In this document: piece after piece, positions 1 through 40,034 of the stretch | How the letters are laid out: every line of letters begins with the position of its first letter | Position numbering within the stretch: the stretch's first letter is position 1 | Source of the DNA: a bacterium | Lineage (GTDB): Bacteria; CG03 | Length of the DNA: 64,000 nt | Direction of reading: 5' to 3' | Assembly: GCA_043825615.1 (NCBI GenBank) | Contig: JBDRRS010000003.1 | Location: forward strand, 125,379 to 189,378 | Translations under genes and position numbers: made by a program | The notes under the pieces: generated by a model | The model's database searches: none | Told to the model about the DNA's origin: nothing | What the model saw: only the letters and a program-made list of their open reading frames with translations

Positions 1-71
1 TAGATTCTAATTGGTTTTTTTGGCTTTTTATTGTAGGCGCTGCATTAGGGGGTTTTGGTGTACATTTCGCC

Positions 72-254
72 TTGGATTATTTTCAATTTAATAATTTACC
101 AAAATGGATAAAATTTACATTAATTATTCTTACGGGTATATTTTCTGGCTATCTCTTGGCAAAGATTAGGAATATTATCCAGTTAATTTTGCTTTATGTA
201 CTAATAGTTGGGGGTTTATTTTTGATAGGTTACTTTTTATGGTCAATACTTTAG
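72..254 (+). CDS. hypothetical small membrane protein (60 aa)
   Basis: ORF in track; hydrophobic, two predicted TM segments; AT-rich; followed within 12 nt by hairpin element copy A. Confidence 0.3.
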   Translation: MDYFQFNNLPKWIKFTLIILTGIFSGYLLAKIRNIIQLILLYVLIVGGLFLIGYFLWSIL

Positions 255-265
255 CTAAAAGAACA

Positions 266-323
266 GGGACGGTTCTGATACTTTTTAGTATGGAAATAAA
301 AACCAGAACCGTCTCGGTTTTTT
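266..323 (+). repeat. intergenic hairpin element copy A (terminator-like: 10-bp stem GACGGTTCTG/CAGAACCGTC, conserved loop, U-tract)
   Basis: Perfect 10-bp inverted repeat read directly; loop GATACTTTTTAG...GAAA..AAAACC shared with copies D, E, G; followed by TCGGTTTTTT. Confidence 0.6.
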
Positions 324-354
324 GAAAAGGTTATTTTAAATAGGAGGATAAATT

Positions 355-1134
355 ATGATTGTTCCTTTAAAAGATTTTGGCAAGTCAGTAAAAGAGCTAT
401 CACGAAATCCGCTTGGTATTATAGCGCTATTTATTGTGCTAGTTTATGGTTTTACATGCTTGCTATTTGGATTTTCAGCTAAATCTTTGACACCGAGCGA
501 AAGAGTTCCGCTTATATGGTTTACTACTCTTTTTCCTTGTTTAGTATTAGTTGTATTCTTTAGGTTAGTTACTAGACATAATCGGAAATTGTATGCTCCA
601 AAAGATTTTCGCGATGATGAATCATTCTTTGGAGCTATAAGAAAAAATCAAACGAATCCATCGGAAGCAAAGGAAAGTGATGCTGATATAAAGGATTTGA
701 TGGAATACGGCGAGGGCTTTCAAATAATCAAAAAACTGGAAGAAAAAATAAAAGAAGATTTACGAGTAAGAAAAGTTAGCAATTCTGATAAAAAGGCCGA
801 AGTTTTGATTCATCAGTTGGCGGCAGCGCAAGTATTAACTTGGTTTGAAAAAACATATTATATGCTGTTTGGCAGTCAAATTGCTTTATTAAAATCACTT
901 AATGAAACTCCTTCAGGACTTACAAAACACTTTATCTCTTATAGATTTTTTGAGACAGTTAGAAATCAATACCCAAAAGCATTTTTATCTTGGAGTGTAG
1001 ATAATTATTTAAATTTTCTTATAACGTCCAACTTGATTTTACCAGAAAATGATAAATTGGTTATAACTGTAGTGGGTAGAGAATTCCTAACATGGCTAAC
1101 AAAATCGGGATATTCTGAATTTAAAGAGTATTAA
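355..1134 (+). CDS. hypothetical membrane protein (N-terminal TM helices, C-terminal soluble domain)
   Basis: 259-aa ORF with RBS-like AGGAGG 8 nt upstream; hydrophobic stretches at residues ~20-70; no recognisable catalytic motif. Confidence 0.5.
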   Translation: MIVPLKDFGKSVKELSRNPLGIIALFIVLVYGFTCLLFGFSAKSLTPSERVPLIWFTTLFPCLVLVVFFRLVTRHNRKLYAPKDFRDDESFFGAIRKNQTNPSEAKESDADIKDLMEYGEGFQIIKKLEEKIKEDLRVRKVSNSDKKAEVLIHQLAAAQVLTWFEKTYYMLFGSQIALLKSLNETPSGLTKHFISYRFFETVRNQYPKAFLSWSVDNYLNFLITSNLILPENDKLVITVVGREFLTWLTKSGYSEFKEY

Positions 1135-1185
1135 TCCTAATAGCAATGAGAAAAAGGAAAAAAAAGGTAACGTCTTTGATATTGA

Positions 1186-1228
1186 GAGGGCGAAAATGAA
1201 GATGGAAACCAGAACCGCCCTGGATTTT
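1186..1228 (+). repeat. intergenic hairpin element copy B (GAGGGCG...CGCCCTGGATTTT)
   Basis: Stem GGGCG/CGCCC flanking loop containing GAAAACCAGAACC shared with copies A and C. Confidence 0.45.
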
Positions 1229-1312
1229 AGAAGCCTATCCAAGTGACTGATTTAGGATGTTACGTGATTAAAGAATTAATCTAATATCAAAATAGGGGGT
1301 AAGGTCATAAGA

Positions 1313-1915
1313 ATGCCAAAGAAATTAAGAGGTTATAAAATTTATATTGCACCGCAGATTTCAGGATATTTAGATACTAATGGACAACCTGTAGTATATG
1401 ATGAAAAAACAAAAAAGAGTCTTGACCCTAATAATATTAATGATAAAATTACAATTTATGAGAGACAAGTAAAAGAATGGTTTCTCAACAGGGCATCGAG
1501 ATTACTGAGTGGTAAGAAAAATGGATTTATAATTCTAATGTTGTCAATTTCTTATATTGAAGGTGTTGAGCGATATAGACAAGGGAATAATAGTAGAAAT
1601 AGTAGTACAAACTATTTTAAAACAGGGCTTCAAAGAATATTTGCGGCACTGCATGTAAGCAATCATGACTTAAATGATTTTTATAGCCAAGTAAGATGTG
1701 GATTATTTCATGTGGGGATGACACGAAAGCAAGTAATCATTAGTCAACTTTACCCTCATCCGATAGATTTTTCAGAATCAAACACTATAAAAATTAATCC
1801 AAAAAAATTTCTAAGGGATATAAAGCTAGATTTTAATAGGTATTTAAAAGAACTAAGAGACCCAACCAAGATTGACCTAAGAAATAACTTCGACAGTATG
1901 TATAGGAATATGTAA
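1313..1915 (+). CDS. hypothetical protein (200 aa)
   Basis: ORF in track, AT-rich island, co-directional with neighbours; no motif recognised. Confidence 0.5.
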   Translation: MPKKLRGYKIYIAPQISGYLDTNGQPVVYDEKTKKSLDPNNINDKITIYERQVKEWFLNRASRLLSGKKNGFIILMLSISYIEGVERYRQGNNSRNSSTNYFKTGLQRIFAALHVSNHDLNDFYSQVRCGLFHVGMTRKQVIISQLYPHPIDFSESNTIKINPKKFLRDIKLDFNRYLKELRDPTKIDLRNNFDSMYRNM

Positions 1916-2005
1916 GAAAATAGAAAAAAAGTTATAGCGTTAGAAATTTAATCCCCAAGAAGAAAAGTAAAAGAAAATGGTGAAGAAAGAGAAGGCGTAG
2001 AAGAA

Positions 2006-2028
2006 GATGAAAACCAGAACCATCCCGG
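2006..2028 (+). repeat. intergenic hairpin element partial copy C (GATGAAAACCAGAACCATCCCGG)
   Basis: 3' half of the element only; its GAACCATCCC is the exact complement of copy D 5' arm GGGATGGTTC. Confidence 0.4.
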
Positions 2029-2042
2029 ATAGAGATATATAG

Positions 2043-2678
2043 ATGAAAGAATATAAAACAATAAAAGATTGTGCAGTTGATATTATCTGTGAAAAAGGTG
2101 ATAAATTAAGCAATAAACAGATAGCTGAACAGGTACGGGATATTATGAAGTCAAATACTACTTGGAAATCTATTGCCTGGTATAAAAATAAAATAAACAG
2201 AGGGATTATAAAAGTTGACAGGCAGCAATATAAATGGATTAGAAAAGGAAAAGTGGTACTAAGAGAAATTACAGTTGAGAATTTAGATGAAATAAATTAT
2301 GAGAATGAAGCAGAAAGAATTGTAGCTGAATATGAGAAGAAACGAACCGGCAAATATCCAAAGAGTTTCAAAAAGGGACCGAATAGCCCCGGATATGATT
2401 TAGAGAGCACAGACCGACATATAGAGGTAAAGGGCAAAAAAAACAAAGGCACAAGATGGTTGCCCCTAACAGCCAATGAAACAGAGAAACTAATCAAAGA
2501 TCCAAAATACTGGTTGTATTTAGTGGAAGGGGATATAGAAAAAAAGCCGGACAATGTTGATATATATGCGATTTCAAAAAATGATTTACTAAGTATGACA
2601 CAACTTAAAATACATGCAAGATTAACGCAATTATCAAATAAAGAAAAGAGGAAGAATTGGAAGGTCAGGAAAGTGTGA
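2043..2678 (+). CDS. DUF3883-like (restriction-endonuclease-fold) domain protein with N-terminal helical/HTH-like region
   Basis: C-terminal segment GYDLESTDRHIEVKGKKNKGTRWLPLTANETEKLIKDPKYWLYLVEG resembles the DUF3883 signature as recalled (GYDi...IEVK...lT.nE...YwLY.V); sits directly upstream of Type III mod. Confidence 0.5.
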   Translation: MKEYKTIKDCAVDIICEKGDKLSNKQIAEQVRDIMKSNTTWKSIAWYKNKINRGIIKVDRQQYKWIRKGKVVLREITVENLDEINYENEAERIVAEYEKKRTGKYPKSFKKGPNSPGYDLESTDRHIEVKGKKNKGTRWLPLTANETEKLIKDPKYWLYLVEGDIEKKPDNVDIYAISKNDLLSMTQLKIHARLTQLSNKEKRKNWKVRKV

Positions 2679-2753
2679 GAGGAATTTGTTCTGAAACTGA
2701 ATTTCTTTGAGAGTTTAAAATTTGGTAGAATAGTGAAATGAGGAATTATTTAT

Positions 2754-4751
2754 ATGAAAAACATTTTTAAAAACAAATTGTATGCATTACTTAAAAAAGA
2801 CGTTCGCCTTTGGGACAAAGAAAAGAAAGAACTCAATGAAACTCTTCTGAAAGACTTGATTGATAAGCTAGACGAAAAACTGCTCGGATTGCTGCTCGAC
2901 GACAAAGAAGCAAAAGAAAAGTTTTTTATCAAAGTTAAAGACGTTTTTGTATTAAAGCAAAATGAGTTAAAATTTTTTATTGATGAAAACAAGCTTGATA
3001 ACTCCTATACACAATATCAAAACAAAATAGGATTGCGTGTCGGGAATAAACTTTTAAGCGAACGAGATGAAGTAGTTTTGGATTGGCCTTTCAAGGATTG
3101 TGTGCTTGAAGGCGGGATGACTAAAGAAGACCAAAAAAGAAATGAGATATTTTTTAATGTAGTGTTAGCAAAAGATGAAATTGACCGGTTGGAAGATCCG
3201 AAGGCATTGGTTAATTGGAAAAGATACACTGCTAATGGTGCGGAAAAGGTAAAAGAACTTGAAAGAGATAAAGACGGCACAATCCGGGAAAATTTAATTA
3301 TCAAAGGTAACAATTTGCTTGCTTTACATAGTCTTAAAGAGCAATTTGCCGGAATGGTGAAATTGATTTACATTGATCCGCCTTACAATAGAGACGCTGA
3401 CACTTTTTATAATGATAACTTTAAGCATTCAACATGGTTAACTTTCATGAAAAACAGACTGGAAGTTGCAAAAGATTTATTAAGAGATGATGGAGTGATT
3501 TTTGTGCAGTGTGATGATAATGAACAAGCATATTTGAAAGTTTTGATGGATAAAATTTTTGGAAAGGATTTGTTGCTTTCAATTCATCATATACAAGTTA
3601 GATATGGAAGTAAATCTTTAAATGAAAGAAAAGATTTTCAAGAATTATTAGAATACGTATTAATATACAAAAATAAAAATATTAATATTAATTTCAACAA
3701 ACCAACGCAAAAGTATCCATTAAATAAATTTAATTTAAAAATACAGCATTCAGATAAACCTTCAAAACAAGTTATTGAAAATGGAAGGAAAGTAGATATT
3801 TGGGATTCTGATAATTTTACTATTAAAGAACAGAAAACTGGAGGTATTGATTTTTTTAAAGAGACTTGGATTTCAGGTAGTATATTATCAGGTACTGGTC
3901 ACGGGAAAATGTATATAAAGATTATAGATAAAAGAAGAAGAGAAGATGGAAATGGATGTTTATATAGGATACATGGGATAGGTGAAGATGGACTGGGTTA
4001 TAGATATTATACTAACCCTCAAAATTCTGGTGCAGAAAGAGGAAAAATGTATACGAAAGTACCATTAAAGATTCTTGAACAAGTGAAAAAAGGGACTGCA
4101 AAAAAAGAAAGTCCAATAATTAATTATTATGATTTTAGTCCAGATATTGGGAATATTAGTCATGAAGGAGGTTTTTCTTTTAATTCAGGGAAAAAACCAA
4201 TTAAGATGTTGAAACAATTTATTAATTATTTTAAGGAAAAAAATTGTTTAGTTCTTGATTTTTTTGCTGGATCTGCTTCAACCGCTCACGCAGTTTTACA
4301 ACTTAACAAAGAAGATGGTGGAAACAGAAAATTTCTTTTAGTTGAACAAATGGATTATATAAACACCATTACTTGTCCCAGAGTGCAAAAAATAATAGAA
4401 AAAGAAAATATCGATGATTCTTTCATTTATCTCGAACTTGCTAAATGGAACGAAGAGGCAAAAGAAAAAATATTGAAAGCGAAAAGTTTGAGCGTCTTGG
4501 AAAAACTTTTTGACGAACTTTATGAGCGATATTTCCTTAACTACAATGTAAAAACAAAAGAGTTCAAAGAAAAAACGATTAAGGAAGAAGAATTTAAAAA
4601 GCTTGGTATAGCCAAACAGAAAAAACTTTTTGTTGAAATGTTGGATATGAACCAGATGTATGTGAATTTTAGCGAAAGAGCGGATAAGAAATACAATCTC
4701 TCAAAAGAAGACATTGCATTGAGTGAAGAATTTTATAAATCTAAAAAGTAA
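2754..4751 (+). CDS. mod: Type III restriction-modification system methyltransferase (Mod), N6-adenine beta-class
   Basis: Motif IV LIYIDPPYN (DPPY) at residue ~207 precedes motif I DFFAGSAST (FxGxG-like) at ~503, the beta-class order typical of Type III Mod; stop overlaps start region of res. Confidence 0.85.
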   Translation: MKNIFKNKLYALLKKDVRLWDKEKKELNETLLKDLIDKLDEKLLGLLLDDKEAKEKFFIKVKDVFVLKQNELKFFIDENKLDNSYTQYQNKIGLRVGNKLLSERDEVVLDWPFKDCVLEGGMTKEDQKRNEIFFNVVLAKDEIDRLEDPKALVNWKRYTANGAEKVKELERDKDGTIRENLIIKGNNLLALHSLKEQFAGMVKLIYIDPPYNRDADTFYNDNFKHSTWLTFMKNRLEVAKDLLRDDGVIFVQCDDNEQAYLKVLMDKIFGKDLLLSIHHIQVRYGSKSLNERKDFQELLEYVLIYKNKNININFNKPTQKYPLNKFNLKIQHSDKPSKQVIENGRKVDIWDSDNFTIKEQKTGGIDFFKETWISGSILSGTGHGKMYIKIIDKRRREDGNGCLYRIHGIGEDGLGYRYYTNPQNSGAERGKMYTKVPLKILEQVKKGTAKKESPIINYYDFSPDIGNISHEGGFSFNSGKKPIKMLKQFINYFKEKNCLVLDFFAGSASTAHAVLQLNKEDGGNRKFLLVEQMDYINTITCPRVQKIIEKENIDDSFIYLELAKWNEEAKEKILKAKSLSVLEKLFDELYERYFLNYNVKTKEFKEKTIKEEEFKKLGIAKQKKLFVEMLDMNQMYVNFSERADKKYNLSKEDIALSEEFYKSKK

Positions 4752-4753
4752 AT

Positions 4754-7528
4754 ATGGACGAGCAAAATCTTCAACAACTTGTTGAATCAGAAATAGGCCG
4801 CAAAACCATTTCTAAGATAGAAATACCGGAGTTTATATCCAGTAATTTAAAGCATGATTTTTGGTATTGGCAAAAAGAAGCTTTGCAGTATTTTGTTGCC
4901 TTTGATGCTCTGGAATATGAATATGAAAAGCCGCTAAACGAGCCAACGCATTTGATGTTTAATATGGCCACTGGTACCGGCAAAACTCTGCTTATGGCCG
5001 CTTTAATTATATATTACTACAAAAAAGGCTATAGATATTTCATTTTCTTTGTTAATCAAAACAATATCGTTGATAAAACTGAAAATAATTTTATCAATAA
5101 AAATCATACCAAGTATCTTTTTCACCAAAATATAGTTATTGACGATAAAACTATCAATATCCGTAAAGTAGAAACTTTTGACAATGCTAATGATATTCAA
5201 ATCAAGTTCACATCTATTCACAAGCTTCACAATGTTGTTTATTTGGCAAAAGAAAATGCGGTCACGCTGGAAGATTTACAAAAAAGAGATTTAGTAATGA
5301 TTGGCGATGAAGCTCATCACTTCAATGCTTCAACTATGAGAAATGGACAAACGGAAATGGATTTGCCAACCGAGCTAAAAGGAAATGCCAGCGAAAAAGA
5401 TGTTGAGAAAAGTTGGGAAAATACAGTGTTGAATAAAATTTTAAGAAAAGGCAAAAATAAACAAGATGTTGAAAATAGAAATGTTTTATTGGAATTTACT
5501 GCAACGATACCGAGAAATGCGGATGTTATAGAAAAATATCGCACTAAGACCATTTATAAATTTGAACTTGTAGATTTTTTAAACGCGGGATATACCAAAG
5601 AAATAAATCTCGTTTCTACTTCGCTCAAAAAGAAAGAAAAAATTTTACTTGCTTTGCTTTTTAACTGGTATAGGCATCAAATTGCTCTTAAAAATAATAT
5701 TGCCAATTTTAAGCCTGTTATTCTTTTTAGAAGTAAGTTTATTAAAGAATCAAAGAAAGATTATGAAGAATTTTTGTCGGTTGTTGATAATTTAAAACCT
5801 GCCGATTTTTATTTTTTAAAAAATATTGAAAATTCCATAAAACAAGAGCAATCCAGTGCGTTCAAGGTATATGAACAAGGCAAAAGTCGAGTGCGACAAA
5901 TGCTCCAATTTATCAAGTATAAAAAAATCAACAGTCGAGAAATTGTGAACTATATCAAAGACGAATTTACCGAAAGAAACTGTATTATAACTAACTCGAA
6001 AGACAACAAGGCAACTACTAAAGAGAAAACAACAGAATACCAAGAACAATTACTTAATAGTTTGGAGGATAGAAATAATCATATACGGGCTATTTTTACT
6101 GTTAAACGCCTAACGGAAGGGTGGGATGTTTTAAATCTTTTTGATATTGTTCGCCTTTATAACGGTAGGGATGAAGGCTACGAAAAAAGTACTGGGAAAA
6201 GAAAAGCTGGAGAGGCAACCGTTCAGGAAATACAGCTCATCGGGCGAGGTGTACGCTACTTTCCTTTTTTTTACAATGAACACGAGAAAAACAAGAGAAA
6301 ATTTGATAATGAATTAGAAAATCCACTTCGGGTGTTAGAGGAATTTTATTACCACAGCGACGACGATGTCCGCTATCTTGATGAGTTAAAGCGAGAACTT
6401 AAAAATAAAGGATTTATTCAAGATAATCGCGAGATAAAGAAATTTGCTCTGAAAGATGAATTTAAGCAAAACTATTTCTTTAAAGAAATAAAAGTTTGGA
6501 AAAATGAAAGAATAGATAATCCAGAAAAAAGAAAAAGAACTTTGGCGGAATTGGAAAAAGAATTTGTTTTTGAATATGAAACAAAAGAATTTGCATTGAA
6601 AGAACAGCAAATTGTTTTAGATAAAGAAAAAGATGAAATTTTAGCGGAAAGTTTACAAAAATATAAAAAAACTATCAGCGCAAAAGTTTCGGATTTTGAG
6701 AAGCATATTGTTTGGAAAGCAATTAATAAAAAAGCTACAAAGGATTTATCGCTTTTACGTTTTGATAACTTGCAAAAGGAGTTGAATCTAAATAGTGTTG
6801 ATGAAATTTTATCAGATCGTTTTATCGGCAATTTTAGGGTCAATATTATTGTAGCAAAAGAAAAACAGGGGCTTGATGATATAAGCAATGACGAAAAACT
6901 GGAGTTATTTTTAAAGTTTTTTGATGAATTTACAAGAAAACTCAAAGAAATAGCCAATCCGTATAAGGGAACTGAAAAATTTGAGCCATTTTCTTTTGAA
7001 GATTTATTTGGCGAGGAAAAGCCAAAGAGCGTGCTTATTGATCCTGAAAGTAAAAATCTTGAGGCTGAATTATTAAAAAATAGCTGGTATGTTCTAAATG
7101 GATTTAATGGAACAAGCGAAGAAAGAGAATTATTAGAATTTATGAAAAATAAAATCGGAAATCTACAAGAAAAATATAATGAAGTTTATTTACTACGGAA
7201 TGAAGAAGTATATAAAATTTACGATTTCGAACAAGGACGTGGATTTGAGCCGGATTTTTTGCTTTTTCTAAAAGGCAATAAAGGAAATTTATATTATCAA
7301 ATCTTTATTGAGCCAAAAGGAAGCCAATTTAAGGACAAGGATGGTATGTTTAAATATAGCAAAGAAGGCTGGAAAGAAGAATTTTTACAGAAAATTACTG
7401 ATAAATATGGCAATGGTAATTTATTGAAAGCTGAAAGTAAAGAATATAAATTGCTTGGATTGCCTTTATTTAATGAAAGAGAAAAACATACTTTCGAAGA
7501 AACATTCAACGAACAATTGTTTAACTAA
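4754..7528 (+). CDS. res: Type III restriction endonuclease Res subunit (SF2 helicase + PD-ExK nuclease)
   Basis: Walker A MATGTGKT, DEAH box (MIGDEAHHF), 924 aa; C-terminal PD...ExK-like motif (EPDF...QIFIEPKG); immediately downstream of mod. Confidence 0.85.
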   Translation: MDEQNLQQLVESEIGRKTISKIEIPEFISSNLKHDFWYWQKEALQYFVAFDALEYEYEKPLNEPTHLMFNMATGTGKTLLMAALIIYYYKKGYRYFIFFVNQNNIVDKTENNFINKNHTKYLFHQNIVIDDKTINIRKVETFDNANDIQIKFTSIHKLHNVVYLAKENAVTLEDLQKRDLVMIGDEAHHFNASTMRNGQTEMDLPTELKGNASEKDVEKSWENTVLNKILRKGKNKQDVENRNVLLEFTATIPRNADVIEKYRTKTIYKFELVDFLNAGYTKEINLVSTSLKKKEKILLALLFNWYRHQIALKNNIANFKPVILFRSKFIKESKKDYEEFLSVVDNLKPADFYFLKNIENSIKQEQSSAFKVYEQGKSRVRQMLQFIKYKKINSREIVNYIKDEFTERNCIITNSKDNKATTKEKTTEYQEQLLNSLEDRNNHIRAIFTVKRLTEGWDVLNLFDIVRLYNGRDEGYEKSTGKRKAGEATVQEIQLIGRGVRYFPFFYNEHEKNKRKFDNELENPLRVLEEFYYHSDDDVRYLDELKRELKNKGFIQDNREIKKFALKDEFKQNYFFKEIKVWKNERIDNPEKRKRTLAELEKEFVFEYETKEFALKEQQIVLDKEKDEILAESLQKYKKTISAKVSDFEKHIVWKAINKKATKDLSLLRFDNLQKELNLNSVDEILSDRFIGNFRVNIIVAKEKQGLDDISNDEKLELFLKFFDEFTRKLKEIANPYKGTEKFEPFSFEDLFGEEKPKSVLIDPESKNLEAELLKNSWYVLNGFNGTSEERELLEFMKNKIGNLQEKYNEVYLLRNEEVYKIYDFEQGRGFEPDFLLFLKGNKGNLYYQIFIEPKGSQFKDKDGMFKYSKEGWKEEFLQKITDKYGNGNLLKAESKEYKLLGLPLFNEREKHTFEETFNEQLFN

Positions 7529-7541
7529 AATGGAAAAGTAT

Positions 7542-7599
7542 GGGGATGGTTCTGATACTTTTTAGGATGGGAATGAAAACCGGAAGCGTCCCGGATTTT
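7542..7599 (+). repeat. intergenic hairpin element copy D
   Basis: GGGGATGGTTCTGATACTTTTTAGGATGGGAATGAAAACCGGAAGCGTCCCGGATTTT; outer stem GGGATG/CGTCCC compensates relative to copy A. Confidence 0.55.
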
Positions 7600-7619
7600 A
7601 CAAACAAAAGGAGGTCATT

Positions 7620-7724
7620 ATGAGTGCAAAAAAGAAAGCAAAGAAGAAAGCAAAGAAGAAAGTAGCTAAAAGGAAAGGCACAAAAAAGAGTACAGGTCCT
7701 GGAGGAGGCCGATCTGGTCGATAG
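7620..7724 (+). CDS. lysine-rich micro-ORF (34 aa, MSAKKKAKKKAKKKVAKRKGTKKSTGPGGGRSGR)
   Basis: ATG preceded by AAAGGAGG RBS at -8; not in ORF track (below 60 aa); low-complexity basic peptide. Confidence 0.3.
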   Translation: MSAKKKAKKKAKKKVAKRKGTKKSTGPGGGRSGR

Positions 7725-7743
7725 AGAAGTACTAAATTATAAT

Positions 7744-8196
7744 ATGGGTGGAAGTGGGCAAAATAGATTCAAGAATGCAGAGGAAGCCTTAAAGAAACTC
7801 GGTCAGGATTTTAATGATTGGTGTTCTATTTTAACGACTCACAGTATGCAAGCTGCATATGCAATTATCGCAGCAAACTGGGCCGTGCATGGTAATGCTC
7901 AAAAAATACTCAATAATTGTTGCTCAAAATGGTCACTTGTCGTTGTTTTCCTATTTCTTGGGGTAAACTTGCTCGCAACCAAATGGATGATCCACAAGCA
8001 CTACAAACAATTTCTATATGCAGAGGAGAACTCGGAAAGATGGGAAAAAGAATTCAGAGAAAATAAGGGCAAACGAACTTTCTGGCCGTATACTAAGTGT
8101 ATTGAATATCTTGGTATTGCTCTCCGTTGGCTGAAAGTGGGGGCACCAGTGATAGCTGCTCTGCTATTCATTCTGAGTCTGTTCTTTGGATCGTAA
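7744..8196 (+). CDS. hypothetical membrane protein (150 aa)
   Basis: ORF in track; hydrophobic segments (WSLVVVFLFLGVNLLA, APVIAALLFILSLFF). Confidence 0.45.
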   Translation: MGGSGQNRFKNAEEALKKLGQDFNDWCSILTTHSMQAAYAIIAANWAVHGNAQKILNNCCSKWSLVVVFLFLGVNLLATKWMIHKHYKQFLYAEENSERWEKEFRENKGKRTFWPYTKCIEYLGIALRWLKVGAPVIAALLFILSLFFGS

Positions 8197-8211
8197 TGGT
8201 ACAACGAAGAA

Positions 8212-8275
8212 CGGGAACAGTTTTGATACTTTTTAGGATGAGAATTAAAAGCGGAAGAGCACCTGTGCTCTTTGC
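8212..8275 (+). repeat. intergenic hairpin element copy E (diverged 3' arm GAGCACCTGTGCTC)
   Basis: Shares GTTTTGATACTTTTTAGGATGAGAATTAAAAGCGGAAG with copies A and D. Confidence 0.45.
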
Positions 8276-8554
8276 TTGGAGAGAACGTGAGTAAACAAAA
8301 CCTTAGAAGCTATCCAGTAATAGCGCACGGAGCAGAATATCTTGTAATCGGCTATCTGATGCGTAGGAATATCCTTGCTTACAAGGCATAGCCAGAGAGC
8401 GTTACAAGAATGAAAAGGGGTTTGATATTATCGCAAAGAAATTGGGTATATCTTACCCGGGGATGGAAGATGTCTTACCTGCCTGACGGCAGGCAGGTTG
8501 TAAAGTGCTGTCCCCGCGGATGCTTTGTGTATAATGACGGTAGGAGAAAAAAAT

Positions 8555-8968
8555 ATGAAACCAAACAATTTAAACTCAAGTTTATTTAATTTTGATTATG
8601 TAATCGTAAAAAAACAATGGCTTCGAAATTTTAAGGAAATCATTAAAGATTTAAAAAAGTTAAAAACGAGATCAAAAACTAATATTAAAAAAATAGCAGA
8701 AAAAGATTTAAGAAAAACTATAGAAAATCATATAAAAGATAATGCAGAAGAATTTACTAGAATTATAGAACTCATTGAATTGCAAGTAAGAGTGCTAGTA
8801 AAATTGGAGGAATTTAGTGTTGAAACTCTAAACAAACATCTTTTTTTAACACTTACTCTTTTTAGAATGTTCCATAAGAAAGATATTTCAAAAAGTTTAG
8901 AAAGAAAATTAAGTTGTATTTGTAACCGTCTTAAATGTAGATTTACAAAATTTAAAAAGAAATTCTAA
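8555..8968 (+). CDS. hypothetical protein (start moved to internal Met MKPNNL)
   Basis: ORF 8525-8968 in track; GGAGA RBS-like precedes the ATG at 8555; no motif recognised. Confidence 0.4.
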   Translation: MKPNNLNSSLFNFDYVIVKKQWLRNFKEIIKDLKKLKTRSKTNIKKIAEKDLRKTIENHIKDNAEEFTRIIELIELQVRVLVKLEEFSVETLNKHLFLTLTLFRMFHKKDISKSLERKLSCICNRLKCRFTKFKKKF

Positions 8969-9011
8969 TAAATCTCTCAGCAGACTTTTGAATTAAGATG
9001 AAAAGAGAAAA

Positions 9012-9056
9012 AGGGTACCGGGGCTTTTAAAATGGGAATGGTAACCGGAAGCGGAT
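9012..9056 (+). repeat. intergenic hairpin element copy F (partial)
   Basis: AATGGGAATGGTAACCGGAAGCGG matches the 3' half of copy D. Confidence 0.4.
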
Positions 9057-9138
9057 AATAGAAAAAGTAGGATGTTCCCCTTTCCTCCATAATGTGGAAC
9101 TTTTTTTAAAATAAAATAGATAGAAGGAGAATATTTGT

Positions 9139-10302
9139 ATGGGAGTTTTTAAGTTTAAAACAAATATAGGGATAATGAGTATAGATTATAGACAAACAAA
9201 GAATTTCCCAACGGAAGTTAGAATAGTATCAAAGGATGATTTCGATAGACATATTGAATTTGATTTAGCCACTCACATTAAAATAGAAATCAATCAGTTC
9301 GTAAGTATTCATGATGATGATGGAACTTATTTGATATATGGTGGTTTAAAAATAAGCAAAATAGAACAAAATCTTGAGAGAATCCGATATTATTGTGATT
9401 TAGATAAAATGATATTTGAAAAAAAAGATGTGTTATACAAGGTTGACCATTGGGAAATTGAATTATTTGGAGTTGATTTTTATTCAGAAGAGATCCTGAG
9501 CGGTGAAATGAGATTCCCTTTTTCTCATAAAATTGATAAACCTTTTAGTTTATTTGAAGTCAAACAGCAATCTTGGGAAATACCATATAAAGGATATGAT
9601 TTTTTTGAAAGCCAAGATTTAATATTTGACCTTGTTAGAATACTTTCAATACTCTCCATGAGAGAAGTATGTTTTGGTGACATAAAAGCGTATAATGAAA
9701 ATAATGAATGTATAAAAGCTCAATTAAATAAACCAAAATATATATTTGAACCGAAACTAGATTATAAAATAGGGAATCTAAAGCTAAAAAAATCCTTAAA
9801 TTTTATTTCTGAATTACCTAATCTTAGTTCAAAAAAATATTCTACGCTGGTTTTTTACTATTTAAATGTATTTCATCAAACCTATGCAGAATTTAGTTTA
9901 GCATTTATGTATCAAGTTTTCGAGTGTATATTTAATTCAAAATGGAAACAAGAAAAAGAATTTCTGAAAATTAAAGAGAAGGGGGAGAAAACAAATGAAT
10001 TAAAGAATGAATACATAGAGAAAAAAATAATAGAAGCTTATCGTGTGCTAAACAAAGATGTACAAAATATATTGGATATTACACCGGGGGAATTCTTTAA
10101 ATTGATTAAAAAAATAAGACAGGTATATTTTCATGCAGGGGATTTAAGTAAAGCACTAAATGAAATGAGAAATAAACTACCAGGCGTTAGAAACGAAGAT
10201 AGAAATTATATTATAGCATTAGGGCAAGTAGTATTATCGGTATTATTACTTTCGGCGGTATATGATTATTCTTTAGAGGATATAGAAGTAACAACTAAAT
10301 AA
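9139..10302 (+). CDS. hypothetical protein (387 aa)
   Basis: ORF in track; last gene of AT-rich island; no motif recognised. Confidence 0.5.
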   Translation: MGVFKFKTNIGIMSIDYRQTKNFPTEVRIVSKDDFDRHIEFDLATHIKIEINQFVSIHDDDGTYLIYGGLKISKIEQNLERIRYYCDLDKMIFEKKDVLYKVDHWEIELFGVDFYSEEILSGEMRFPFSHKIDKPFSLFEVKQQSWEIPYKGYDFFESQDLIFDLVRILSILSMREVCFGDIKAYNENNECIKAQLNKPKYIFEPKLDYKIGNLKLKKSLNFISELPNLSSKKYSTLVFYYLNVFHQTYAEFSLAFMYQVFECIFNSKWKQEKEFLKIKEKGEKTNELKNEYIEKKIIEAYRVLNKDVQNILDITPGEFFKLIKKIRQVYFHAGDLSKALNEMRNKLPGVRNEDRNYIIALGQVVLSVLLLSAVYDYSLEDIEVTTK

Positions 10303-10313
10303 AAAGAAAAACG

Positions 10314-10347
10314 AGATTAGTTCTAATACTTTTCTATCTATTGAAAC
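10314..10347 (+). repeat. intergenic hairpin element weak copy H (GTTCTAATACTTTT)
   Basis: Shares GTTCTAATACTTTT with copy G; 12 nt after stop of the 9139-10302 ORF. Confidence 0.3.
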
Positions 10348-10566
10348 CTGCAGAAAGAAATTACATCCTGACAAAACTATCATTCTCGTGGTCTGAAGAA
10401 CTTCGGGTTTTGTAAAGTACGGGATACGGGTAACGGGGGAAGAACAAATCCCCCTCAATCCCCCTTTACTAAAGGGGGAAAGATTGCCACGGGCTTCGCC
10501 CTCGCAATGGCAGGCCAGGGGGAGGAAAGAACTTTGAGTTAAGAAAGCATTTGGTATAATTGCGCT

Positions 10567-11346
10567 ATGATTGGCGCGATAGCGGGTGATATTATCGGTT
10601 CTGTCTTTGAATGGAATAATATTAAGACGACGGAGTTCCCTTTATTTTGTGACGAATCAATGTTTACGGACGATACAGTATTAACCATAGCGGTTGCCGA
10701 TTGTATATTAAACAGTAAAGATTATGCCGGGACTCTTAAATCATGGGGCAGAAAATATCCGGATGCCGGATACGGGGGAAATTTCGGGGCATGGCTGTAT
10801 AATGAGAGAAGCGAACCGTATAACAGTTGGGGGAACGGGTCGGCTATGAGAGTCAGTCCGGTTGGTTTTGCTTTCGGAACCCTTGAGGAAGTATTGGAAG
10901 AAGCAAAGAAAAGCGCTGAAGTAACCCACAACCATCCTGAAGGAATAAAAGGCGCCCAGGCGGCCGCCGGAGCAATATTTTTAGCGAGGCAGGGTAAAAG
11001 TAAAATTGAAATTAAGGAGTATGTGGAAGAGCAATTTGATTATAACCTGAGCAGAACTCTTGATGAAATCAGACCGTCATATTCCTTTGATGTGAGTTGT
11101 CAGGGCTCTGTGCCCGAAGCTATAACCGCATTTTTAGAGTCAAACAGTTTTGAGGATGCAGTTAGAAAAGCGGTTTCAATAGGAGGGGACAGCGATACGA
11201 TTGCCTGTATAGCGGGCGGAATTGCCCAGGCGTTTTATAAGGAAATTCCTGCGGAAATTATATTGAATGTAAAAAAAAGATTGCCGCCGGATATGCTGGG
11301 GGTTGTTGAAGAATGGAGAAAGAGAATAGTAAATGGTAAATGGTGA
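10567..11346 (+). CDS. ADP-ribosylglycohydrolase family protein (DraG/ARH-like)
   Basis: Family-typical N-terminal GAIAGDIIGS and C-terminal GGDSDTIACIAGGIAQA motifs. Confidence 0.8.
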   Translation: MIGAIAGDIIGSVFEWNNIKTTEFPLFCDESMFTDDTVLTIAVADCILNSKDYAGTLKSWGRKYPDAGYGGNFGAWLYNERSEPYNSWGNGSAMRVSPVGFAFGTLEEVLEEAKKSAEVTHNHPEGIKGAQAAAGAIFLARQGKSKIEIKEYVEEQFDYNLSRTLDEIRPSYSFDVSCQGSVPEAITAFLESNSFEDAVRKAVSIGGDSDTIACIAGGIAQAFYKEIPAEIILNVKKRLPPDMLGVVEEWRKRIVNGKW

Positions 11347-11386
11347 TTAGGGAAGAAGGACGAGAGGTATTTAGTATAATTGTGGT

Positions 11387-12235
11387 ATGAGACTTCATAT
11401 CGTCGTATTATTTTCAATTATTGTCTTATCTCTAACAGCGCCGGTCTATGCGGATAATAAAAATGAGATTAATCTTAATTTAGAATGCTCAAGTTATGCG
11501 GGAACGAGCAGAAATATTAATTATTCTTACCGGTCCGGTAAACTTCCATTAAAATACCAGATAGAGAGTTTTACTTTTCCAAATAAAAGGGTAATCAGGA
11601 GTGTTCTTTCGGGAAGAATTTCATTGGATATGAAATACTTCGAACTTGGCTATGGCTATAATTGTGATAAATTCAGTACTGGCCGCAATGGAATATTACG
11701 TATAGGTTCAAAAAATGCATGGGCGCTTGTACTTAAAGGATTCTACAATGTAGAAGAACAGTTTCTGATTGGTGAAAAGAGAAGATACAATACATCAGCT
11801 TACATGGATATGTTGATAGTGTTTGGTAATTTAATATATTTGAACTTTGATTTGAACATGGTGGGGATGCATGTAACTGATGAAGTTATAGATGAAGATG
11901 GAGCATGTAGGGACACTATTAAAGAAGAATCAGATTTTATTTCAGATGCTGAATTTAGTTTAAAAATAAAACTGTTTCCCAGAAGGAAAATATCATATTT
12001 CGTTGGAATAGGTGGGATAAGCAATGAAAATATACATTATGGCGAGAACACTGAAGATTATTGTTTTGTTGGCTATTTTGAGATACTTAATCAGATAAAT
12101 AAGAATATTCATTGGAATATTTCTTTCAAGTGCGGAAATGGTGAAAAGAGTTATCGTACAGGAGAGTTCGAACCCTCGACGAATTCAAGCCAAAAGATGA
12201 TTGGATTGTTTACAAGCGTTTCTTATAAATTGTAA
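11387..12235 (+). CDS. hypothetical secreted protein
   Basis: N-terminal signal peptide-like MRLHIVVLFSIIVLSLTAPVYA; no motif recognised. Confidence 0.45.
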   Translation: MRLHIVVLFSIIVLSLTAPVYADNKNEINLNLECSSYAGTSRNINYSYRSGKLPLKYQIESFTFPNKRVIRSVLSGRISLDMKYFELGYGYNCDKFSTGRNGILRIGSKNAWALVLKGFYNVEEQFLIGEKRRYNTSAYMDMLIVFGNLIYLNFDLNMVGMHVTDEVIDEDGACRDTIKEESDFISDAEFSLKIKLFPRRKISYFVGIGGISNENIHYGENTEDYCFVGYFEILNQINKNIHWNISFKCGNGEKSYRTGEFEPSTNSSQKMIGLFTSVSYKL

Positions 12236-13167: not shown

Positions 13168-13272
13168 TACGATATTGTAATAATTAAAAGCCGGAACGCA
13201 AAAAGTTCAAGGGAAGAGGCGGGTAACGGGGAGCGGGCCGGGGCTTTGCAATAAAAGAAAGGGTAAAAGAAA

Positions 13273-13359
13273 GGGGACGGTTCTAATACTTTTTGGGCGG
13301 GGCAAAATAAGAAACACCGTTGGTTTCGGGGAAATGTCATATTGTAAAGCACCGTCCCC
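13273..13359 (+). repeat. intergenic hairpin element copy G (outside the AT-rich island)
   Basis: GGGGACGGTTCTAATACTTTTTGGG...; distal complement CACCGTCCCC at 13350-13359; upstream of ankyrin gene. Confidence 0.45.
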
Positions 13360-13382
13360 ATTGCTAAAATATAAAAAGCGAA

Positions 13383-17789: not shown

Positions 17790-18680
17790 GCGGGGGAAGG
17801 GGTATAATGCCAGGGAAGAAAACCAACCGGCGCACGGCTTTTGCTGTCTGCGCAGAGAACGGTTATCGGGTGACGGGAGAGCGCCCCTGCCCGTGCGGAA
17901 TTCAATTCGTAAAGACCCCGTTTTGCTCGAAAAAGCGCTTTTTCAGCCGGCTTAATGGTTTTGTATGGCTGAAAGCCGGAAAATGACACATTTCCCCTAA
18001 GTCGGCTTTCAGCACGCCACGGCGCATCTACGACCGCAATCAAATTGCTCGCAAAATCTTCTCCGCCCCGAGAAATCCAAAGGATTTCCGGGACTCAGTC
18101 CTCGGAATTTCTTTGAAATTCCAGAGGGTAATCTGCGTAGAAGTCGCAACGTAAGATACATCGCTGCTGAGGACTGACCGGCCTTGTTCCGCTTGTCGGC
18201 CCGGTGGCGCCAGGCACCTTGCGCGGAAAACGGCAGCAAGTCCGGATAAATCCGGCCGCTGCAGGAAAAGATGGCGATTACCGGCGCGGCGGGCGAAACA
18301 ATAAAAACTGAGTTTCATTTTTTTTCAGGGTTATCAGCCGAAAATTGGTTTTACTTGTTTTCATTGTAAAATTGGTATAGTTTCTTCATAGAACATATTA
18401 AGTATTGAATTGAAATTCTTTAATCATAAGAAAATACAAGATATTTCTGTTAAAAAGCATTAAATATTTTTCAGGGAGAAATCCCTCTAAAAGTTTACAG
18501 AATAGATATTATCATAACTTGTAAAGGGGTTCCCGACGGGGGAAAAATCCTGCAGGTTTTCATGAAATCGAGCTGCCTTCCCTTTTTTCTCAGGTATTTA
18601 CCGTCGGGGAAAGTTATATAATCTTTGTATTTGTCAATTTTCAGGGTCTGTTAATGGTTTTGTACCCTGAAATCGCTTTT
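17790..18680. other. ~0.9-kb region without coherent ORF between convergent genes; GC-rich core 17990-18320 with multiple hairpins (possible ncRNA or gene remnant)
   Basis: Only short overlapping low-complexity ORFs on both strands; local palindromes GGACTCAGTCC, CCGGATAAATCCGG, GGAATTTCTTTGAAATTCC. Confidence 0.3.
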
Positions 18681-24013: not shown

Positions 24014-25663
24014 CTATTTTTTTCTTTTTAATTTTTTAAGGATGCGCTCAATATCCGATTTCAATTTAGGAGAAATATTCGGGTTGCTGTGCACTTTTTC
24101 CAAAAAAGGAATTCCCTGCGTTATTTTAAATTTCTTTATGTAATATAGATAAAACCGCAAACGATAAGCTCTTTTTTTATCAAATAAATCTTTTTCATAC
24201 AATTTCGATTTTTCCTCCAGGAAAGCGTAATCTATTTGCTCGTAATGTTCTTTTGTTAACTTTAGTACCATTGCTTGTATTTTCCTTCCTATGTTTTTCT
24301 GCAAATTCGGGTATTCTAAAAAAGCAAATAGTTCGGGGAGCAATAACAACTTTTTTGAAGATATAAAATCCAGCACTATTTTCTGCGAGTTTTTATAACC
24401 GCGTTTGAACGGGATATTCATTACGGAAACTGTGTTTGAATCACTTTTGTCATATTTCAAATTTAACAGAAATTTGATTCGTTTTTCAAGATAATCATCA
24501 GCGTATTTGCTTATTTTTGAATCGCACAGATACATAAGGTATTCCATTGTTTTCATAACGGTTAAGTCGTTCAATATAGCAACTATTTTTTTACGGATAA
24601 TTACGGCATCGTAAGGGACAACCTGCAGGTTTCCAAGTACGTCCAGCAACACTGTTATGTGCCTGGTGCGTTCTGAAAACTCTAAATTATTTTTATCTAT
24701 TTTATCAACGATTTCAAATGCCTTAAGAGCCACGTCGAAATTTTTTGATTTTAGTAAATGATACAACCCCGGCAGACATTTCCTGCTTTTTATAATGTCA
24801 AAAACTTCAAGCAGGGTCTGTTCAATTTCAGGGGATTTATAATTATTTGCGTATTGGTTCAAATAACCGGCGTACTTCTCCCCGCCTAAAAATGCAACCA
24901 CCTTAATTATTTTCTGAATCACTTCTTCGTCCGAACTTGTTTTATACGCGTTCGCCGCCATATCCAAATAGTTGGTTTTATTGTTGTTCAGTATAAAATC
25001 CAGCGTCTTGAGTTTTTCTTCTTTGCTGCCGTATTTCAAGTTATACACCGTTTCTTTGTCGGAACCGCTCATTAGGGAGTTTCCATCGCTTTTAGAGTTG
25101 TAAGTATCTTCTATTACAACGGTTTCACCGCCTTCGAATGTGGTCCTAACAAGGGAAGAAACTAATTTATCCGTCAGATAATGAATCCTCGATTCAGAGG
25201 AAGTCGTCGCATGATTGCTGTATAAGATTTTACCTGTTTCCACATCTACCATGTTTACGGATACAACGAATTTATTCAGCAGTTTTCCGAATTTTCCGGT
25301 TACAATATACCGTATGTTTAATATTTTCCCGATTTTAACAGCGCATTCTACTTCCGTGCAAGCGGTTTGCTGGAAACCCTGCTCCGCCAGCACCTTATCA
25401 AGGTTGTTCCTGTCAACAACGTTAAAGCGCTTGCTTTTGACGATACCTTCTCTGAAAAATTCCGCTACGAATATGGAGTCGCTGGCAGATACGCCCTGAG
25501 AGCCGAAGTCCAGAACCGCTATATTATGGATTTTGTTCTTTATTGCAACCGCGCCGACGGTAAGAAACGCGAGCAATACTACTGCGGTGAAAACATTGTG
25601 TAACTTTCTCTTTATTTTTCCGGATTCTGCGCTAAATAAAAAAGACATTGCGAATATTCTCAT
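24014..25663 (-). CDS. CsgG/LpoB-like N-terminal domain protein with C-terminal alpha-helical repeats
   Basis: IAVLDFGSQGVS...VVDRNNLDKVLAEQGFQQ...VTGKFGKL pattern; AT-rich gene. Confidence 0.5.
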   Translation of the reverse strand: MRIFAMSFLFSAESGKIKRKLHNVFTAVVLLAFLTVGAVAIKNKIHNIAVLDFGSQGVSASDSIFVAEFFREGIVKSKRFNVVDRNNLDKVLAEQGFQQTACTEVECAVKIGKILNIRYIVTGKFGKLLNKFVVSVNMVDVETGKILYSNHATTSSESRIHYLTDKLVSSLVRTTFEGGETVVIEDTYNSKSDGNSLMSGSDKETVYNLKYGSKEEKLKTLDFILNNNKTNYLDMAANAYKTSSDEEVIQKIIKVVAFLGGEKYAGYLNQYANNYKSPEIEQTLLEVFDIIKSRKCLPGLYHLLKSKNFDVALKAFEIVDKIDKNNLEFSERTRHITVLLDVLGNLQVVPYDAVIIRKKIVAILNDLTVMKTMEYLMYLCDSKISKYADDYLEKRIKFLLNLKYDKSDSNTVSVMNIPFKRGYKNSQKIVLDFISSKKLLLLPELFAFLEYPNLQKNIGRKIQAMVLKLTKEHYEQIDYAFLEEKSKLYEKDLFDKKRAYRLRFYLYYIKKFKITQGIPFLEKVHSNPNISPKLKSDIERILKKLKRKK

Positions 25664-38966: not shown

Positions 38967-40034
38967 TTAAACCGTCGGCTGCAATTTTAGCAAATTTTTC
39001 CTAATCAAGTAACTATATATTCTTTCTCCGACAATAGAATGTCCTGCGCTATTCCAGTGGCAATTGTAGGGCATTCCGTCAACGACAATTCCGGCGGTCT
39101 TCGCTTTTTTTATCAGTTCAGGAATATCGGGTATATAATGTATCTTGCATTTCCTGCAGATATTCGGAAAAGCGTTGCCTAACCATTCGGGCTTAAAGGC
39201 AGAAAAAGCGATTATTGGAGTGCTGCCGGCTCTTTTTTTGACCAATTTCATTATCTCCGAAGTTGTGTTTACCGATTGTTGAAATAACGGGTGTCTTTCA
39301 TGCAGTTCGTCTTCTATTGAACCAATCATTTTTTCTTTTACAATGTGTAATCTGCTTTTAAATAACCGTAAAAAATATGAAAAATGAACTAATTTATGGA
39401 TCCACGTGTAACCTCGACTCTGTTTCGGGTATAAATACTCAATTTGCCCGTCTTTGTAATAAGGTCTTCTCATCTGGTTATTGTTTCTATTACTGGCGGA
39501 TTCAAGAGAGTAATCATTATTAATAATATCATTGCTGCTGAATTGCCATAAAATAATGTCGGGCTTTATTATGTCAAAAAACTTATCCAATATCATGTAT
39601 TCCTGCAGCGAGCCGTAGCCGCCGCATCCGTAGGCGAATATTTCCGTGTCCTTATTTTTCAAAAAATCGTAGTAGGTATTGCCGTCCGAAACAGTATTTG
39701 CCTGTGTAATTGAGTCGCCTATTACAAGTATTTTGGTTTTGGAAGTATTCGTGTCGCCGAAAACGCGGAAACCCCACTTGGTCGTGGTAAATTTTATTTT
39801 CCCGTATCTTTTATATCTCTTTTCCACAGATATGTTTGGAGCAGTTTCCCATCCGAGGTATTTTGAAAAGTTGCTTTCACGGGGAATTGCTTTGCTTTTA
39901 ATTAAATAGAAACTTCTCGTTACACCCTCCAGCAGAAGGATGAATAAAACGAACGTTGTAATTAAAAATATGATTTCACGAACTCTTATTCCGGTAAATA
40001 CTCCCGTTTTTTTAAAATTGTTTTTCATATTCAT
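38967..40034 (-). CDS. SGNH/GDSL-family hydrolase, membrane-anchored
   Basis: ILVIGDSIT motif; N-terminal TM. Confidence 0.6.
   Translation of the reverse strand: MNMKNNFKKTGVFTGIRVREIIFLITTFVLFILLLEGVTRSFYLIKSKAIPRESNFSKYLGWETAPNISVEKRYKRYGKIKFTTTKWGFRVFGDTNTSKTKILVIGDSITQANTVSDGNTYYDFLKNKDTEIFAYGCGGYGSLQEYMILDKFFDIIKPDIILWQFSSNDIINNDYSLESASNRNNNQMRRPYYKDGQIEYLYPKQSRGYTWIHKLVHFSYFLRLFKSRLHIVKEKMIGSIEDELHERHPLFQQSVNTTSEIMKLVKKRAGSTPIIAFSAFKPEWLGNAFPNICRKCKIHYIPDIPELIKKAKTAGIVVDGMPYNCHWNSAGHSIVGERIYSYLIRKNLLKLQPTV

Follow-up and report, generated by a model that had tools for sequence, protein, structure and literature searches.

Type III restriction–modification (R-M) systems of the EcoP15I and EcoP1I type are encoded by adjacent mod and res genes. 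Mod methylates the sites of the host, and Res, an ATP-dependent helicase-nuclease, cleaves DNA that lacks this modification. It is well established that R-M systems are often surrounded by defence islands. Among the proteins linked to R-M operons are the HEPN RNases, which include PrrC, AbiV, ApeA and HEC-08. At least 16 HEPN clades are tied to R-M operons, and in the model for PrrC and PrrI a latent RNase is freed when restriction fails (Anantharaman et al. 2013, PMC3710099). HEC-08 is a HEPN protein of the DUF3644 type that lies within a defence system, and the protection it confers depends on the histidine of its Rx4-6H motif (bioRxiv 10.1101/2024.01.29.577857). In the modification-dependent enzyme YenY4I and the McaZI group, catalysis is carried out by the PD-(D/E)XK domain DUF3883 (PMC6765204), which occurs in HmaA too. 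The locus presented here is an AT-rich island at the left end of a 64-kb stretch of DNA (252-kb contig JBDRRS010000003.1 of assembly GCA_043825615.1, positions 125,379 to 189,378, from a bacterium of the CG03 lineage), referred to as the window. It contains a complete Type III R-M pair, a DUF3883 gene (open reading frame ORF3) that shares one inter-repeat unit with mod and res, and a related intergenic element after nearly every module. In addition, the module of ORF1 has been exchanged between islands with breakpoints at these elements. Such an island is ordinary in type; its value lies in the new HEPN-like candidate family of ORF2, the family of ORF1 with two transmembrane helices (2-TM) and the unexplained repeat.

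The locus is, on balance, probably a horizontally acquired chromosomal defence island that forms a one-directional array of independently acquired modules; this joint reading includes the roles proposed below for ORF1 to ORF3 and for the element. The mean G+C content (GC) amounts to ~31% over window positions 1–10350 and to ~45% over the rest of the window. Every 1-kb bin of 1–10000 lies at 0.28–0.34, as opposed to ~0.40–0.56 over most of the remaining 54 kb, and on the right side GC climbs to the host level at about 10350–10500. The left edge is covered by the Logan contig L001, which overlaps the island and adds 622 nucleotides (nt) to the left of window position 1. Herein, the AT-rich block opens ~460 nt before the window, right behind a G/C-run hairpin, and starts with the promoter-like AATTTGCTAAAATA followed by two small membrane-protein ORFs of 75 and 104 amino acids (aa). 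The island thus measures ~10.8 kb (window −460 to ~10350; locus tags ABIJ15_00705-00760 in the NCBI record). The original prediction, made from the sequence of the window, had described an AT-rich block with all genes on the plus strand; every ORF named in it was found on that strand at the given coordinates, and the start had to be moved by ~460 nt upstream. The GC of single genes spans 0.22 (8555–8968) to 0.42 (7620–8196), and the island is therefore a mosaic and not a uniform block. Given this base composition, chance alone would produce one stop codon per 11 codons, and the chance of a stop-free frame is 1e-16 for 387 codons, 7e-7 for 150 codons and 2e-6 for 137 codons. With such small probabilities the larger ORFs are not chance frames; 8555–8968 and 7620–7724 are less certain. 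The rightward neighbours are ordinary chromosomal genes, encoding an ADP-ribosylglycohydrolase, a metallo-β-lactamase (MBL)-fold hydrolase, an ankyrin protein, PFK and AccA.

The Type III R-M pair is complete, standard and apparently intact. Mod matches the PADLOC profile MTase_III (6.7e-165) as well as PF01555 (N6_N4_Mtase, 9.8e-32) and PF12564 (TypeIII_RM_meth, 2.2e-14), the latter representing the N terminus typical of EcoP15I- and EcoP1I-type enzymes. Its motifs follow the β-class order, with DPPY208 preceding FAGSA504. Res matches the PADLOC profile REase_III (9e-106) over residues 18–917 of 924 and PF04851 (ResIII, 6e-25), and it exhibits the helicase motifs GTGKT74 and DEAH185 and a C-terminal PD-ExK motif, PD833...EPK. 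Both PADLOC profiles are matched almost over their full length, and the res start lies 3 nt past the mod end. No structural difference from EcoP15I- and EcoP1I-type systems is visible, and no simple-sequence tract of the kind used in phase variation was found in mod. Profile and motif searches thus confirm the pair as it had been predicted.

ORF2 has no match in Pfam, NCBIfam, PHROG or PADLOC (in Pfam and PADLOC even at E <= 10). It belongs to a family of 87 homologues, nearly all of them 198–214 aa long, with 34–74% identity and without any Pfam domain, whose hosts comprise bacteria (Paenibacillus, Flavobacterium, Bacteroides, Omnitrophota, Lutispora) and archaea (Woesearchaeota, Nanoarchaeota). 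In an alignment of 28 diverse homologues, R128, C129, L131, F132, H133, G135 and the pair E83-G84 are invariant, and the stretch RCGLFH constitutes an Rx4H motif. The original prediction, which could assign no motif to ORFs other than the R-M pair and the DUF3883 gene, had overlooked it. The AlphaFold model of ORF2 (predicted local distance difference test score, pLDDT, 91.3; predicted template modelling score, pTM, 0.87) consists of a four-strand N-terminal β-meander followed by the helices 42–64, 71–90, 98–110, 117–133 and 163–182. A HEPN domain is defined as a bundle of four helices in which helix 2 carries an acidic residue, helix 3 ends in an Rx4-6H motif and a variable insert separates these two helices (Anantharaman et al. 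2013, PMC3710099). The model agrees with this definition: E83 is located in the second helix, helix 98–110 represents the insert and R128–H133 closes helix 117–133. Judged by the model, ORF2 fits the pattern of a HEPN-like family beyond the current Pfam and PADLOC models and is a putative RNase and a defence candidate.

The genomic neighbourhood of the ORF2 family was examined in 12 independent contexts, of which seven lie directly beside recognised defence systems. In the present island, ORF2 adjoins the DUF3883 gene and the Type III R-M pair. In a woesearchaeotal contig (L005), the start of the ORF2 relative overlaps an Eco57I-type methyltransferase gene within a Type IIG-like operon, and the surrounding island also holds GmrSD, Mrr and ThsB. 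The other relatives are found at the 3′ end of a Type I R-M/Cap4-nuclease/MC4 operon (L017), among the McrBC-like, Mrr_cat and NERD genes of a Paenibacillus island (L002), directly behind a type II operon of the cyclic-oligonucleotide-based antiphage signalling system (CBASS; L025), at the end of a Bacteroides prophage with Peptidase_M78, AbiC, AbiH and RnlA (L026/L028), and adjacent to a Type ISP R-M enzyme of a Mu-like viral contig (L027). The remaining five contexts are a Synechocystis plasmid rich in toxin–antitoxin genes, a Flavobacterium integrative and conjugative element, an Agrobacterium plasmid, a contig of uncharacterised ORFs and one housekeeping context (L007). The operons closed by ORF2 relatives extend over 4363–7968 in L017 (Type I R-M, Cap4_nuclease, MC4 and a 634-aa uncharacterised protein) and over 1426–11239 in L005 (PLD-helicase, Eco57I-type methyltransferase, HATPase_c_3 and PDDEXK_1). 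The Paenibacillus gene upstream of the ORF2 relative was considered as a homologue of ORF1 and rejected, as the two are not homologous.

Compared with the R-M-linked HEPN RNases (PrrC by PrrI, AbiV, ApeA, HEC-08/DUF3644 and the 16 clades), ORF2 shares the Rx4H motif, the acidic residue of helix 2 and the insert between helices 2 and 3. It is likewise small and stand-alone, and it occurs repeatedly inside or beside R-M operons. In contrast to them, it has no profile match to any Pfam or PADLOC HEPN family, it lacks an ABC-ATPase or other regulatory domain and contains only the short N-terminal β-meander, and no partner antitoxin gene is conserved across its contexts. By analogy to PrrC next to PrrI, ORF2 would be a latent HEPN-type RNase with R128, H133 and E83 as putative catalytic residues. 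It may act on its own as a second line of defence: once restriction has been disabled or infection advances, cleavage of tRNA, rRNA or mRNA would bring translation to a halt. With its compact size of ~200 aa and its wide distribution from Paenibacillus and Bacteroides to Woesearchaeota, the family offers a cheap and directly testable single-gene defence candidate.

ORF1 belongs to a family of about 396 homologues whose invariant residues (N18-PLGIIALFI-27, F56, P61, L79, P82 and D84) are all located in the N-terminal 2-TM module. The C-terminal half varies by subfamily and is a winged helix-turn-helix (HTH) in ORF1, and a receiver domain, a restriction endonuclease-like domain with D..EVK or a pYEATS domain elsewhere. 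The winged HTH of ORF1 is matched by Pfam HTH_45 at 0.0044, and a precomputed HTH_45 match exists for seven homologues. ORF1 matches PHROG 26238. Its family is represented between the int and ogr genes of a P2-like prophage of Yersinia enterocolitica and in nine viral contigs of IMG/VR; moreover, 28 of the 5426 E. coli genomes carry a relative in a small accessory islet flanked by yfgI and guaA. A relative with 82% identity lies in a co-directional defence island (contig L018) together with DUF4062-HATPase_c_4, Peptidase_M78-DUF4411, a protein kinase and PycTM. The closest described proteins are the 2-TM effectors of abortive infection (Abi), such as SLATT, PycTM, the 2-TM effectors of CBASS and RexB. 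Like these, ORF1 couples a membrane module of two helices to soluble domains that can be interchanged, and its family is present in prophage accessory loci and defence islands. It differs from them in that neither Pfam nor PADLOC matches it to SLATT, PycTM or any other effector family, that the island contains no cyclase or other signal-producing partner, and that its effector role is only a putative one. A membrane-acting Abi effector with a variable sensor would be expected to combine an invariant membrane module with exchangeable soluble domains, as this family does. Accordingly, the 2-TM module may be the membrane-acting effector and the exchangeable C-terminal domain (here the winged HTH) the sensor. 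ORF1 would then be a single-protein abortive-infection or exclusion factor. The strikingly invariant 2-TM module with its exchanged sensor-like domains makes the family a lead for follow-up.

The DUF3883-like domain that had been recognised in the original prediction is confirmed in ORF3 by Pfam NOV_C (E = 2.8e-10; 40.6 bits at a cut-off of 22.1; residues 90–169). The 85-residue N terminus has no family match, and neither Pfam nor NCBIfam scans revealed a modification-sensing domain such as PUA, DUF3427 or SRA. ORF3 resembles the YenY4I and McaZI group and the Mrr-type Type IV enzymes in its C-terminal DUF3883 domain with D...ExK, in the small putative DNA-binding domain ahead of it and in its defence-island setting. 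Unlike the YenY4I and McaZI group, it comprises only 211 aa and lacks the modification-sensing PUA and DUF3427 domains. ORF3 is a putative small nuclease of Mrr/Type IV-like character. No repeat element separates it from mod and res; mod nonetheless has its own promoter-like TGGTAGAAT.

The repeated element, which the original prediction had missed, is a related sequence of ~65 nt that is found after nearly every unit. Six clear copies exist, all of them intergenic and on the plus strand, with nhmmer profile E-values of 7e-7 to 7.5e-16. In the other 54 kb of the window, nhmmer and pattern searches found only a half copy at 13268–13294. The full form, GGGACGGTTCTGATACTTTTTAGKATGRRAATRAAAACCRGAASCGYCCCGGATTTT, is an imperfect palindrome followed by a T-run. 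Compared with shuffled sequences, folding is weak in copies 2, 4 and 5 (z −1.3 to −1.9), with copies 2 and 5 relying on another 5′ partner or on a newly formed local hairpin. This repeated re-creation of a hairpin with a U-run points to a role as terminator or insulator. The conservation of the element exceeds the needs of such a role. Rfam gave no match at the gathering threshold or at E <= 1. Each copy contains in the same frame an ATG-started short ORF of 8–18 codons (M-x-x-K/E-T/S-R/G-T/S...). Its stop codon abuts or overlaps the start of the next gene in three cases (TAGATG at 2040–2045, ATGA at 7620 and a third one in L018), which suggests translational coupling. A conserved leader peptide was rejected as explanation, as the substitutions show no bias toward third codon positions. 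The element would be mainly an intercistronic hairpin or terminator that insulates the modules, and its sequence similarity may at the same time supply the homology for module shuffling. Intercistronic palindromes of the repetitive extragenic palindromic (REP) type are likewise imperfect palindromes between genes; REP sequences are genome-wide, whereas the present repeat is confined to the island.

The element divides the island into the units [75 aa], [104 aa], [ORF1], [ORF2], [ORF3 + Mod + Res], [34 aa + ORF6], [ORF7] and [ORF8]. Which ORFs act together had been considered undecidable from sequence; this view is partly overturned by the repeat, which delimits the units and places the DUF3883 gene in one unit with Mod and Res. 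The island-specific repeat provides sequence-based unit boundaries. The ORF1 unit is shared with L018 at 90.4% nucleotide identity over 809 nt (window 334–1142 = L018 7148–7956), whereas the flanks are unrelated; the shared segment begins 7 nt past copy 1 and stops 20 nt short of copy 2. Therefore, units move between related islands at or near elements. L018 also contains the 5′ half of an element at 4978–5001 (22/22 identical to copy 1) and a 3′ half at 5149–5170. This element is split exactly at its center by a promoter-like site and a small ORF homologous to the C terminus of the 75-aa ORF. The 5′ part of copy 2 is present in L018 at a different position. This movement may rest either on homologous recombination of the repeats with one another or on a dedicated recombinase.

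Several points weigh against the joint reading given above. A HEPN match to ORF2 is absent from the Pfam and PADLOC scans at E <= 10 and from a profile search of the PDB, and Foldseek with the ORF2 model gave best E-values of 1.2 (PDB) and 0.24 (BFVD) and no support for HEPN. Some ORF2 relatives are found among housekeeping genes (L007). For the ORFs at 7620–7724, 7744–8196, 8555–8968 and 9139–10302, there is no evidence either way on a defence role. Regarding the element, only copy 1 folds significantly better than shuffled sequences, and because copies 3 and 6 are not well folded, a terminator role fails to explain the sequence conservation. An exact-pattern scan did not detect the element in JGI metagenome contigs or GTDB genomes (strict pattern, 0 matches; looser pattern, only chance matches in coding regions).

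The lack of a HEPN match in Foldseek and the housekeeping context of L007 are also in favor of a simpler explanation, according to which only the Type III R-M pair is defensive, ORF2 is a non-nuclease helical bundle and the other ORFs are hitchhiking cargo of an AT-rich variable region, made up of membrane proteins, orphans and decaying genes. PADLOC-DB v2 gave no match for any of the seven flanking ORFs at E <= 0.01, and relaxing the threshold to E <= 10 added only noise. Furthermore, ORF8 is an orphan, and the short ORF at 8272–8391 looks like a gene remnant. This explanation is nevertheless considered unlikely: ORF2 carries its invariant Rx4H motif and glutamate at the positions of the HEPN active site, ORF2 relatives are repeatedly located within R-M, CBASS or Abi clusters of unrelated phyla, and relatives of ORF1 are known from accessory loci of prophages as well as from a defence island. 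The proposal that the flanking ORFs are defence candidates is supported for three of the seven. For ORF2 it is backed by HEPN-like features and defence-rich contexts, for ORF1 by the 2-TM module with swapped domains and by prophage and defence loci, and for ORF3 by the nuclease architecture of modification-dependent enzymes.

A further explanation takes the island as a cassette array that is kept by integron-like site-specific recombination, with the ~65-nt elements as non-canonical recombination sites and the recombinase located upstream of the window. As in integron cassette arrays, a related imperfect palindrome follows each of the tightly packed co-directional units, which differ in GC (0.22–0.42) and are exchangeable between islands. 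The breakpoints of the ORF1 module at elements and the promoter with a small ORF exactly at the center of the split element in L018 would fit as well. Integron attC sites have the core sites R″ (RYYYAAC) and R′ (GTTRRRY) flanking an imperfect palindrome, and unlike them, none of the six copies contains either motif on either strand; an AAC...GTT pair at the stem base is present in copy 1 only. A canonical integron array was rejected on this sequence reading. No integrase is known for the array, and no integrase or recombinase was found among 10 ORFs scanned between 12 and 32 kb of the window. Moreover, some copies are remodelled into local terminator hairpins, which are better explained by an RNA role, one unit comprises 5.5 kb with three genes, and the element is known from two contigs only, namely the island (window and overlapping L001) and L018. 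Such an array is accordingly improbable. The split copy around the small gene in L018 suggests an insertion of units at the element center, and a bolder version holds that the elements are the joints of an undescribed cassette-exchange system, integron-like but without attC cores, that assembles defence genes one-directionally in this uncultivated lineage; this version is highly speculative. If the element should prove to be a recombination joint, it would represent a new way of assembling defence genes.

A last explanation treats the block as the moron, or accessory, end of a prophage or integrative element that has since degraded, and not as a free-standing chromosomal island. In its favor are the ORF1 relatives next to int of the P2-like prophage and in nine viral contigs, the PHROG match of ORF1, and the ORF2 relatives in a Mu-like contig and at the end of a Bacteroides prophage. 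It is quite improbable, being opposed by the absence of phage structural, replication or integrase genes in 1–32 kb of the window, by the absence of a tRNA gene flanking the island and by tblastn searches of ORF1 and ORF2 against GenBank phages and of ORF3 against GenBank plasmids, which found nothing close.

Within the preferred reading of a modular defence island, the right part consists of ORFs without a family match (Table 1). For ORF8, a word-indexed search of 5.8 billion clusters and an exhaustive HMMER search of 1.84 billion representatives found only a 99% identical copy and one repetitive artefact. ORF8 has no sequence match in the PDB, and hhalign against the ORF2 family was negative. 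Its RQVYFH is a hint only, because the single-sequence AlphaFold model (pLDDT 34.6) is unusable. A short ORF at 8272–8391 (...AEYLVIGYLMRRNILAYKA) lies between element copy 5 and ORF7 and has no significant family match. It resembles the leftover N-terminal part of a gene that has decayed, perhaps one of the PD-(D/E)xK type.

Table 1. Coordinates of the island features, given in window positions if not stated otherwise.
Feature	Position	Strand	Description
104-aa multi-TM ORF (ABIJ15_00710), 3′ part	1–254	+	Start 60 nt before the window; 75-aa TM ORF and promoter-like AATTTGCTAAAATA further upstream in L001
Element copy 1	260–327	+	GGGACGGTTCTG...CAGAACCGTCTC hairpin, then T-run; nhmmer E = 3e-14; fold −22.2 kcal/mol, z = −4.25
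ORF1, 259 aa	355–1134	+	N-terminal 2-TM module (invariant NPLGIIALFI), C-terminal winged-HTH-like domain
Element copy 2	1163–1232	+	nhmmer E = 1e-11
ORF2, 200 aa	1313–1915	+	N-terminal β-meander and HEPN-like helical domain; invariant R128-x4-H133 and E83
Element copy 3	1994–2035	+	3′ half, 5′ half partly deleted; nhmmer E = 6e-7
ORF3, 211 aa	2043–2678	+	Winged-helix-like N terminus and DUF3883/NOV_C PD-ExK domain, D119...E128-V-K130
Mod, Type III methyltransferase	2754–4751	+	Pfam, PADLOC, motifs; promoter-like TGGTAGAAT at 2722–2732
Res, restriction/helicase subunit	4754–7528	+	Pfam, PADLOC, motifs
Element copy 4	7538–7605	+	nhmmer E = 7.5e-16
34-aa lysine-rich ORF	7620–7724	+	12-nt tandem repeat, strong Shine–Dalgarno sequence; absent from NCBI annotation
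ORF6, 150-aa membrane protein	7744–8196	+	2–3 TM; GC 0.41; no family match
Element copy 5	8208–8263	+	3′ part remodelled to separate terminator-like hairpin
ORF7, 137–147-aa basic helical ORF	8555–8968	+	GC 0.22; no family match; putative gene
Element copy 6, diverged	9007–9054	+	nhmmer E = 7e-7
ORF8, 387-aa orphan	9139–10302	+	β-rich N terminus, helical C terminus; RQVYFH at residues 327–332
Degenerate copy, element 5′ half	10300–10333	+	At right edge of island
Element short ORFs	289–324, 1194–1246, 2007–2042, 7566–7622, 8237–8293, 9032–9058; L018 5149–5208		
Right boundary	10350–10520		GC rise to host level; G/C-run hairpin inside; CGGGTAACGGGG here and again at 13220

At the right boundary, the exact 12-mer CGGGTAACGGGG occurs twice (window 10427–10438 and 13220–13231; 0.19 expected). 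Both sites are located in G/C-rich intergenic regions, which bracket the ADP-ribosylglycohydrolase gene, an AT-rich ORF for a secreted 282-aa protein and the MBL-fold gene; therefore, the variable region may reach ~13.3 kb. The second of these genes (11387–12235, GC 0.33), just beyond the island, encodes a protein with a signal peptide and without family match, possibly an outer-membrane β-barrel. Farther to the right lies another AT-rich gene at 24014–25663 (minus strand, GC 0.33). Its 549-aa product contains a weak CsgG-like region, and the gene may be a horizontal acquisition of its own. At the left border, the 25-nt segment TCTTTTCCTGTAGCGGTCGGATTTA (L001 46–70) has a 92% identical match on the opposite strand at window 18247–18271 (minus strand).

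The promoter-like AATTTGCTAAAATA that heads the island (L001 144–157) recurs in L018 at about 1790 and about 5015 and in the window at 13363–13376 and 38984–38997 (minus strand). It is probably the strong promoter of this lineage, with an extended −10 box. Another repeated sequence, ATTTGGTATAATTGnGnTATGA, is found at window 2720–2741, 10549–10570 and 11369–11390. It places a TATAAT-like box 6–7 nt ahead of the ATG of the ADP-ribosylglycohydrolase gene and of the ORF at 11387, and this short distance suggests leaderless transcripts for both. A similar box is also located upstream of mod.

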